From Escherichia virus TH38: 64,000 bases of DNA. The position numbers and the translations under genes are program-made. Positions 42,313-43,674 of this stretch are shown piece after piece (position 1 is the first letter of the stretch; each line of letters begins with the position of its first letter). The notes under the pieces are model-generated. The model did not search any database and was not told the DNA's origin. It saw only the letters and a list, made by a program, of their open reading frames with translations. The stretch lies in the sequence record MT446410.1, one strand, 5' to 3'.

Positions 42313-43674
42313 TTAGTTGTTTGTTTCCATGTCAAAAGAGATTCCACGACCCGCTTCATCGGCAAACCGAACTGTGCGGGTTTGAGGTTCTAATACTTCA
42401 GGGTTGTTAGCAACAAAGCGGTCAGCGAGATTTCGACTGATGGTCTCAGCAAGTTCCTCATGAGAAGGAACATCAAGACTACCTGCCACATCTTGGGCCA
42501 CACCTTCATCAGTCCACACAGCCCTAACAGGTGCGTTGATATCACCAACAGCAAAACCCTGACCAGAGAACTGACGTGCGCTAACAGTTAAACCATTTGG
42601 ACGACCACGAGAAGGACTAGCCATCCATCTCTCCATAGAATCACTTGTAATACCAAGAGCTTCTTCAAAAGATGTTCTACGAGTAGGGCTTACTCTTCGT
42701 GACTCTTGTGCTCGGCGCATTGCAGGGGCTACAAACACCCCTTCAATTGCATTGTGCCGATTAGGTTCATCTTCTCGACCAAGGAGATCTCCTCCTGTAT
42801 TAGTTGTTAAGTTTGTCAACCCTTCAGACCAATATGCACGAATCTGGCTAGAGCCATGAATGCTTGACATTAACTGAATCTCTTCATAAGGGATTCCAAA
42901 GAATCGACTCATGTCTCGGTTAACACAATATTGAGCACTTGTTGTATCCTCAATAAGAGAAACCTGACCTAATCCATTAACCAGATGACTAACCGGCTGG
43001 GGTGTGGGAAGATATCGAGTTTGGGCCATGTATTGATGTGCAACTGCTGGAGAGGAAAATCTCAATACTTGCGAGTTAGGCCACTTCTTGTGAACGTATC
43101 TGATTTCACGACTAGAAACAACCACTGGACAGGGGGCGGTCATAGCCAAATACCCATGAGAAGTCATGAATAAATTGTCAAGAGTCATCGCACCACGACA
43201 CATCATAGGAAAATTATCCAATACCTCTTCAATAGAAGTAGGATAATTAAACATGAATTGGATACGAACCCCATTCCACTGAAACTCAATAATATCAGTG
43301 AATGTTAATTGAGAACCCCCAGCATAGGATTCGTTCGTAGCTTCAGCAAGAAGGGATGCATACTCGATATCTTGTGACTCTAGCCATTCCTTCACATTAC
43401 TTTCAATCTCTCTTCCAAGAGCTTGCCAACGGTCAGTTGGGATGGATATGTTTTGAGTTCTTGGTGTTTGTCCTCTGACAATAAAGATATCAATGTCATG
43501 TGGAGCTGTGTTATTAAGCACAGCATCTCGAACAGCCCCACCAGTAATGATGGGACAGATACCGTCTGGAATTAAGTTGTTATTAATCAATTGCTCAATG
43601 AAGTGACGACCAACAGTGATATCAGGTTGTTGAGAAACCTTATCTTCAATTTGGTTAATCGGGATAACAATCAT
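42313..43674 (-). CDS. nucleotidyltransferase (CCA-adding/poly(A) polymerase-like head) fused to large unknown C-terminal region
   Basis: GGAVRDAVLNNTAPHDIDIFI class-II NTase motif near N-terminus; start at internal ATG (MIVIPINQ...) next to exonuclease stop. Confidence 0.5.
   Translation of the reverse strand: MIVIPINQIEDKVSQQPDITVGRHFIEQLINNNLIPDGICPIITGGAVRDAVLNNTAPHDIDIFIVRGQTPRTQNISIPTDRWQALGREIESNVKEWLESQDIEYASLLAEATNESYAGGSQLTFTDIIEFQWNGVRIQFMFNYPTSIEEVLDNFPMMCRGAMTLDNLFMTSHGYLAMTAPCPVVVSSREIRYVHKKWPNSQVLRFSSPAVAHQYMAQTRYLPTPQPVSHLVNGLGQVSLIEDTTSAQYCVNRDMSRFFGIPYEEIQLMSSIHGSSQIRAYWSEGLTNLTTNTGGDLLGREDEPNRHNAIEGVFVAPAMRRAQESRRVSPTRRTSFEEALGITSDSMERWMASPSRGRPNGLTVSARQFSGQGFAVGDINAPVRAVWTDEGVAQDVAGSLDVPSHEELAETISRNLADRFVANNPEVLEPQTRTVRFADEAGRGISFDMETNN

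Follow-up and report, generated by a model that had tools for sequence, protein, structure and literature searches.

A class II-like nucleotidyltransferase with a lysine-free tail diverges rapidly at a fixed position in the replication module of Kuravirus phages

The 64,000-nucleotide stretch of Escherichia virus TH38 DNA analysed here (record MT446410.1; hereafter the window) contains, on the minus strand at 42313..43674, a gene for a protein of 453 residues (plus the stop codon) with the signature of a nucleotidyltransferase (NTase). All coordinates refer to the window and all residue numbers to this protein. The gene is defined by the open reading frame (ORF) listing, with the ATG at 43674 and the stop codon at 42313-42315, by its match to PHROG 12715, by the existing annotation, and by the ratio of nonsynonymous to synonymous substitution (dN/dS). 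The protein consists of N-terminal helices with a class II-like catalytic head (residues 1-160; 43195..43674, minus), an alpha/beta extension (residues 161-290; 42805..43194, minus), and a tail (residues 291-453; 42316..42804, minus). The upstream neighbour (43676..44233, minus) encodes the 3'-5' exonuclease subunit of a DNA polymerase (Pfam DNA_pol_A_exo1, 1.8e-9), and the downstream neighbour (41770..42303, minus) a dCTP deaminase (Pfam DCD, 3.5e-34), as the initial annotation of the locus had it; a DnaB-type primase-helicase gene is found by the Pfam scan further upstream of the exonuclease gene. The NTase gene lies within a long run of minus-strand genes for replication and nucleotide metabolism. 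Over the 5 kb surrounding it, identity is 99.9% to Escherichia phage EC.W2-6 and 95-97% to SU10, Bas90, Bas91, and further Kuravirus phages, which belong to the Gordonclarkvirinae, the phiEco32/SU10-like podophages with prolate heads.

The ATG of the NTase gene is separated by 1 nt from the TAA of the exonuclease gene (junction sequence TGGAAAATGTAAAATG). An in-frame GTG at 43731, which would add 19 residues, was ruled out as the start, because every homologue begins with MI.IP at the ATG. Scans for promoters and terminators around the gene gave no excess over the shuffled expectation, and no Rfam families were found near it, which suggests that the gene belongs to a long polycistronic unit. 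The dN/dS of the whole gene is 0.09-0.10 (against two Kuravirus alleles), and the ORF is a real gene under purifying selection, tail included. The name nucleotidyltransferase is already given to it in the records of Bas91, SU10, and other phages, and the motif observation is already part of the public annotation.

Motif A occupies residues 45-64 (43483..43542, minus), with GGAVRD at residues 45-50 and DIDIF at residues 60-64 (G45 G46 A V R49 D50 ... P58 H D60 I D62 I F64), corresponding to the glycine motif and the two catalytic aspartates. It aligns with GGAVRD...DVD of the CCA-adding enzyme 6ibp (PHDIDI against PHDVDV) and with GGAIT...DVDIYF of the anti-Gabija protein Gad2. In alignments of 25-32 family members, the residues G45, G46, R49, D50, D60, D62, F64, Y117, I128, Q139, P156, Y193, and K197 are invariant, and position 127 is D or E in every member. 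The members in these alignments share only 21-35% identity with the window NTase; since the residues of motif A stay invariant at such distances, the motif, judged by its conservation, is not a chance match, and the GGAVRD...DxD signature that the initial annotation had placed at the N-terminus is present family-wide. D127 (43294..43296, minus) lies in the sequence F-T-D-I-I-E-F on a predicted strand (residues 125-133) and is a candidate for the third catalytic carboxylate, on the basis of the residue pattern and the topology. A further family motif, [RTK]-[DE]-x-x-Y-x-x-[KR]-[KR]-x-P, is found at residues 189-199 (REIRYVHKKWP; 43078..43110, minus) on the helix 188-197, and includes the invariant Y193 and K197. 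The NTase is probably an active enzyme, because its invariant residues are those expected to bind the nucleotide and the metal in a polymerase-beta-type transferase.

The only Pfam match of the NTase is PolyA_pol (PF01743), over residues 43-119, with 18.7 bits, below the gathering score of 23. Three further Kuravirus homologues score 20.1-21.9 bits, also under 23, and 24 of the 32 family members match PolyA_pol, all below the threshold (best E-value 6e-4). Scans of the NTase with NCBIfam and PADLOC gave no matches. The local copy of Pfam is older than PF26128 (Gad2 itself has no match in it), and a missing match is not evidence against the newest families. The PHROG 12715 profile, named 'nucleotidyltransferase', is matched at 1e-260 over residues 1-453 (profile positions 1-457), and also by the distant members P0045, P0064, and P0070; PHROG 1614, which holds small phage nucleotidyltransferases, is matched weakly over residues 36-155 (1.4e-7).

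A model of residues 1-300 was predicted with AlphaFold from an alignment to which distant relatives had been added, with a mean predicted local distance difference test score (pLDDT) of 87.6 and a predicted template-modelling score of 0.84. Foldseek comparison of this model with the PDB returned class II enzymes as all of the top 42 matches, with template-modelling scores of 0.3-0.4 that reflect a partial superposition. Every one of the nearest solved structures belongs to a tRNA CCA-, CC-, or A-adding enzyme or to poly(A) polymerase (e.g. 1miv, 3h37, 1ou5, 3aql), and the structural alignment spans at most ~160 residues. The fold of the predicted head domain is thus closest to class II structures and, together with the sub-threshold PolyA_pol match, agrees with the head type (CCA-adding enzyme or poly(A) polymerase) named in the initial annotation; a derivation of the head from the class II type of these enzymes is supported. 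The expected alignment of the motif with the NTase active site holds only at the level of the whole fold, at which folds and not individual residues were matched.

The likeness to class II tRNA nucleotidyltransferases and poly(A) polymerase I lies in GGxVRD...DxD and the likely third carboxylate on the following strand. The window NTase differs from them by a ~28-residue insertion between DxD and the third carboxylate, by its score under the Pfam gathering threshold, by the loss of RRD, and by the lack of body, tail, and RNA-binding domains; it is also acidic and lysine-poor, its folded extension is unique, and its tail is probably disordered. The segment at the place of motif B (RRD; RRDFTINA in E. 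coli Cca and PcnB) reads LDNFPMMC in the window NTase. Family members differ in this segment except for the conserved [FM]-P. Its correspondence to motif B is based on hhalign to F-D-F-T-V-C of Gad2 and on the residue pattern of E. coli Cca and PcnB, and by these comparisons the RRD ribose-recognition motif of class II is absent. The candidate for motif D (EDxxR) is the [RTK]-[DE]-x-x-Y-x-x-K-K helix (residues 189-197), in a region where hhalign is unreliable, as it is anywhere beyond motif A. The correspondences of motifs B and D are tentative, because the alignment to E. coli Cca and PcnB, whether by sequence, profile, or hhalign, is reliable only over ~20 columns of motif A.

Beyond the head, the initial annotation had described a single uncharacterised region of ~350 residues with no recognisable tRNA-binding body. 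The absence of such a body holds, but the region is not one unit: the head reaches to about residues 150-160 and is followed by the extension (160-290) and the tail (290-453). No Pfam RNA-binding or body domain is found in the protein, and residues 158-300 have no relative in the PDB or Pfam (the profile gave no PDB match better than E=1.1 and no Pfam match), in agreement with the lack of a tRNA-binding body. The extension is confidently predicted as folded, with block pLDDT values of 70-97, and is conserved only in the nearer relatives. The tail is lysine-free and of low hydrophobicity (residues 301-453 contain no lysine, 17 arginines, and 75% disorder-promoting residues). In a full-length AlphaFold model, calculated from a shallow alignment of Kuravirus sequences only, the overall pLDDT is 31.8 and the tail lies below 50; residues 290-453 are probably disordered, as composition and model suggest. 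The tail comprises an indel-rich stretch (residues 376-410; 42445-42549, minus) and a conserved C-terminal peptide (residues 411-453; 42316-42444, minus). Length variants of the tail among 22 alleles all keep the frame and the C-terminal peptide, and the dN/dS of the tail is 0.11-0.17, so the tail is coding and constrained. No counterpart of it was found outside Kuravirus-like phages among 1.84 billion representative proteins.

The NTase contains 4 lysines against 33 arginines, and its K/(K+R) of 0.11 is the lowest among the 44 window ORFs of at least 120 residues. The low ratio is kept in distant family members (0.04-0.33), all of which are net acidic or neutral. The lysine poverty is not an effect of base composition, because the GC content of the locus is unremarkable. 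Lysine is also scarce (0.19-0.25) in the products of several ATP-grasp/amidoligase cluster genes and in a DUF6453 protein; these ORFs lie at 14579-15610 (plus), 35150-35572 (minus), 47358-48560 (minus), 51114-52217 (minus), and 53640-54611 (minus). The Kuravirus tail ends in ...SFDMETNN. The tails of the distant homologues cannot be aligned; an aromatic residue stands in the last five positions of 17 of 27 of them against 8.8 expected, with no correction for kinship, and a tryptophan in 8 of the 27 against 2.3 expected, likewise uncorrected (C-termini of P0045-P0077). The primase-helicases of the clade (in the window 44227-46017, minus) end in ...SPW or ...LPF, and these sequences suggest a C-terminal aromatic docking motif common to the NTase tails and the primase-helicases.

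The whole NTase family comprises only 32 clusters, found by a HMMER profile search of the 1.84 billion representative proteins, and the loci of relatives that were inspected all lie on phage contigs of 70-88 kb. The gene order is the same in every relative inspected: ATP-grasp, gamma-glutamyl cyclotransferase, primase-helicase, exonuclease, NTase, dCTP deaminase, with a gap of 0-18 nt between exonuclease and NTase genes. Among cultured phages, tblastn finds the NTase gene in 97 records, all of E. coli or Shigella phages; the named phages recognised among them we take to be Gordonclarkvirinae. The NTase identity in these records is bimodal, with at least 80% in 69, less than 60% in 28, and no value between.

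The NTase diverges far more than the genes around it. In comparison with a KBNP1711-like contig (L002), it is 40% identical, against 94.6% for the primase-helicase, 87% for the exonuclease, 96% for the dCTP deaminase, and 95% for ThyX. For contig L003 the corresponding values are 32-36% for the NTase, 94% for the helicase, and 95.5% for the dCTP deaminase, and for more distant contigs 30-33% for the NTase and 75-80% for the helicase and dCTP deaminase. Across the comparisons the NTase stays at 30-40% identity and the helicase, dCTP deaminase, and ThyX at 71-96%. The nucleotide identity falls from 0.8-0.9 to 0.35-0.6 across the NTase gene and returns to 0.8-0.97 where the dCTP deaminase gene begins, and the boundaries of this island of divergence are sharp and coincide with the start and stop of the NTase gene. 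Within the genus, an NTase of 89% identity is observed beside a 100% identical helicase. Each allele is nonetheless constrained by purifying selection (dN/dS ~0.1). The NTase gene is an always-present cassette of fixed position that diverges fast or is exchanged. The divergence island was first seen in the present analysis, and so was the weak link of the head to Gad2.

In the initial annotation, the gene was said to lie near a tRNA cluster, and its product was proposed to repair or modify tRNA 3' ends, relevant to defences that cut tRNA. The cluster is not there: ARAGORN and Rfam each find a single tRNA in the window, tRNA-Arg(TCT) at 60382-60456 (minus), ~16.7 kb away, and its CCA is encoded in the genome. 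(In Bas91, the tRNA gene shares its end with an overlapping homing endonuclease gene.) An enzyme that adds CCA or mends the acceptor end against nucleases or toxins would suit the nearest solved structures, the closeness of motif A to that of 6ibp, and the choice of the SU10 and NJ01 annotators, who named the gene after the class II CCA-adding enzyme. It does not suit the rest of the protein, in which neither body and tail domains nor a Pfam RNA-binding domain (tRNA_NucTran2 included) were found, RRD is not conserved, the structural alignment ends within ~160 residues, and the net charge is acidic. The single tRNA is distant and has its CCA encoded, the host has its own Cca, and no RNA ligase, polynucleotide kinase, or kinase/phosphatase is annotated in the stretches of the Bas91 record that were covered, to which positions 1-32144 (~40% of the record) do not belong. 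An enzyme serving the universal CCA end is also unlikely because the NTase gene diverges far faster than its neighbours, which is hard to square with an invariant substrate. With no tRNA-measuring body and tail, no RRD, and an extension and tail of its own instead, the NTase as predicted here is not a CCA-adding enzyme, and the tRNA 3'-end repair proposed for it is very unlikely. The other possibility raised in the initial annotation, the tailing of nucleic acids, would be the most plausible chemistry.

A housekeeping role in replication has more in its favour. The enzyme would be tethered by its tail to the replisome and add nucleotides to 3' ends of primers or DNA, in replication or in the processing of the ends of a linear, terminally repeated genome. 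This agrees with the fixed position between the exonuclease subunit and the dCTP deaminase in every relative and with the aromatic C-termini: in phage T7, the aromatic tails of gp4 and gp2.5 dock on the T7 polymerase, and the ...SPW and ...LPF ends of the helicases of the clade resemble them. The loss of RRD would, moreover, allow the use of deoxynucleoside triphosphates. However, a component bound to such partners should evolve at their rate, and the identity of the NTase is 30-40%, compared with 77-95% for the helicase, exonuclease, and polymerase; the statistic of aromatic ends ignores relatedness, and the Kuravirus tail has no aromatic end. We also know of no template-independent transferase in T7-like replication, and on balance the replication role is unlikely. 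A catalytically dead scaffold that has kept only the fold could account for the lost motif B, the unreached Pfam threshold, and the fast evolution of most of the sequence, but it is hardly credible, as G45, G46, R49, D50, D60, D62, and the acidic residue 127 stay invariant among members at 21-35% identity, the pattern expected of an active enzyme.

Covalent modification of the phage DNA, carried out together with the adjacent dCTP deaminase, would use the conserved adjacency of the two genes. The BASEL-2 paper (PMC11990801) describes the Gordonclarkvirinae as remarkably resistant to restriction-modification, names no known modification or inhibitor genes in them, and, to explain the resistance, points to the pair of dCTP deaminase and nucleotidyltransferase as a possible route of DNA modification, e.g. 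to DNA containing deoxyuridine (dU-DNA). The dU-DNA idea was rejected: it is unlikely because the phage encodes the thymidylate synthase ThyX (Bas91 annotation; Thy1 in contig L009). The NTase and the dCTP deaminase do not co-evolve like partners of one pathway, because only the dCTP deaminase is highly conserved, and one contig (L010) has a replaced dCTP deaminase allele, 58.5% identical to that of the window, yet an NTase of the Kuravirus type. To our knowledge, no base-hypermodification pathway employs a class II-type transferase, and a modification role of this kind is extremely unlikely.

Among known proteins, head-only NTases of other podophages are the main matches in a Foldseek search of viral models (BFVD), in which they appear as 'poly(A) polymerase head domain' proteins of 170-250 residues, including those of LKD16, phiAS7, Cd1, PP2, and fHe-Yen3-01. 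One head-only NTase with no assigned function, Gp22 of Klebsiella phage fHe-Kpn01, proved toxic to E. coli, and no biochemical assignment was found in the literature for any head-only class II-like NTase of podophages. The PHROG 1614 proteins (LKD16, phiAS7, Cd1; fHe-Kpn01 Gp22) have in common with the window NTase a phage-encoded class II-like head without a tRNA-binding body. They are 170-250 residues long, whereas the window NTase has 453, including an additional folded region and a long tail; it is placed in a different PHROG (12715) and is restricted to phiEco32-like phages.

Gad2 is a 400-residue anti-Gabija protein of phage SPbetaL7 and a predicted nucleotidyltransferase; the SPbetaL7 version is toxic when expressed. 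The sequence used here was OQ921347.1 109563-110765 (Pfam PF26128, Gabija anti-defence protein 2, of SPbeta-like phages), and many Kuravirus homologues carry the precomputed Pfam label 'Gad2 (weak)' (PF26128). Like the window NTase, Gad2 (~400 residues) is a phage enzyme in which a predicted nucleotidyltransferase head precedes unrelated sequence, and both proteins match PHROG 1614 weakly. BLASTP of the NTase against Gad2 finds motif A at E=0.003 and a second weak block; hhalign gives a probability of 78% with the single Gad2 sequence and of 68% over 101 columns with a 24-member Gad2 alignment (NTase residues 21-163, Gad2 residues 14-115). With the profile of the Kuravirus family, Gad2 reaches 19.6 bits, whereas E. 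coli PcnB reaches 4.4 and Cca 3.6. Motif A aligns as GGA...NN...D-h-D-I-[FY]-F and the second block as h-Q-h-h...F..C.GA. The likeness ends at about residue 163 of the NTase and residue 115 of Gad2; Gad2 lacks the R-D of GGAVRD, has D-F-T where the NTase family has F-P, and is encoded in a variable anti-defence locus, whereas the NTase gene stands in the replication module. By these alignments, Gad2 would be a distant cousin that shares the head and not the family of the Kuravirus NTase. Membership of the NTase in the Gad2 family was not accepted, given its score of -1.2 bits with the Gad2 profile, its placement in another PHROG family, and the end of the likeness with the head. No data on Kuravirus or Gabija linking the NTase family to Gabija inhibition were found in the literature, and the BASEL panels are not known to include Gabija.

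The reading tentatively favoured here, to which we give somewhat less than an even chance, is that the NTase is an active, non-CCA terminal nucleotidyltransferase, acting most likely on a nucleic-acid end or a host factor in phage-host conflict. The enzyme would be a member of the polymerase-beta superfamily with a class II-derived head, in which D60, D62, and D127 would bind two metal ions and a nucleoside monophosphate would be transferred from a ribo- or deoxyribonucleoside triphosphate to a hydroxyl acceptor, most likely the 3'-OH of an RNA or DNA end. The constrained, lysine-free tail with its conserved C-terminal peptide would probably tether the enzyme to a partner. Its work would lie at the interface of phage and host, in host takeover or the evasion of host defence, because the gene always occupies the same place in the replication module and yet diverges several-fold faster than its neighbours; such divergence is the behaviour of genes engaged with variable host factors and fits a conflict better than tRNA repair. 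In principle, the NTase would then resemble the toxic head-only NTases of other podophages and the anti-Gabija Gad2 rather than an enzyme of housekeeping tRNA repair. A more specific version is quite unlikely, namely that a Gad2-related family of enzymatic counter-defence NTases has settled in the replication module as a hypervariable cassette, that it nucleotidylates DNA ends or a host defence factor and so contributes to the unusual resistance of the Gordonclarkvirinae to DNA-targeting defences, and that its allele classes track variants of host defence.

Several observations weigh against a role in conflict or against details of the proposed mechanism. The divergence island could have arisen without an arms race, through relaxed constraint on all but a small catalytic core or through replacement by recombination. 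Counter-defence genes are usually accessory and movable, whereas the NTase gene is fixed in the core replication module throughout the clade, a position just as compatible with a core function in replication. With a net charge of about -18 (-12 in the head), the protein is acidic, and class II RNA-binding enzymes are basic. The putative third carboxylate and the motif matches beyond motif A follow from patterns and profiles and not from coordinates. The similarity to Gad2 is weak and confined to the head, the two proteins fall in different PHROG families, and in the reverse search the Gad2 profile gives no positive score for the window NTase, while its best score for a family member (15.4 bits) covers motif A only. 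No mechanism had been reported for Gad2 as of February 2026, and no functional study of the NTase gene was found in the literature.

Some further features of the surrounding block were observed. The family A DNA polymerase seems to be encoded in two pieces: the 185-residue exonuclease subunit (43676-44233, minus) lies ~9 kb from an ORF of ~600 residues (33289-35097, minus), which is assigned only by the match of its position to the DNA polymerase annotated in Bas91, and nucleotide-metabolism genes lie between the two parts. Three ORFs of 65-69 residues (41154-41769, minus), arranged in tandem directly downstream of the gene for the dCTP deaminase, have no Pfam match and look like weak paralogues; two pairs are 23-26% identical over the full length (E 4e-4 and 3e-3), the third pair is not significant (E 0.27), and a T-R-x-x-A-R motif and a C-terminal tyrosine are common to them. 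A ferritin-like protein (40196-40774, minus; Pfam Ferritin, 2.6e-7), annotated as a DNA-binding protein in Bas91, is encoded in the replication module near thioredoxin and ThyX, and its position is kept in distant relatives. In contig L010 (4324-5371), the diverged dCTP deaminase gene is directly followed by a gene for an HNH endonuclease, with the helicase and orf109 100% identical, which looks like an allele replacement tied to a homing endonuclease. The conserved early cluster at 46237-56000 (minus) contains, according to the Bas91 annotation, a RimK-like ATP-grasp protein, gamma-glutamyl cyclotransferase, glutamine amidotransferase, amidoligase, and COOH-NH2 ligase, which suggests a system for the modification of peptides or amide bonds. 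Its ATP-grasp and cyclotransferase are 58-70% identical to those of L002 and L003, and are thus more diverged between genera than the replication genes.

If the NTase proves to be a plain RNA-tailing enzyme or an accessory enzyme of replication, the result is an ordinary one. Head-only class II-like NTases nevertheless occur in many podophage proteomes, one of them is toxic to E. coli, and the distant relative Gad2 defeats Gabija by an enzymatic route. The Kuravirus NTase family is tractable, being always present, syntenic, and sharply divergent, and E. coli K-12 with restored O16 antigen is a host of Bas90 and Bas91. The restriction resistance of the Gordonclarkvirinae is unexplained, and the acceptor of the NTase could explain it and shed light on enzymes of the Gad2 type.

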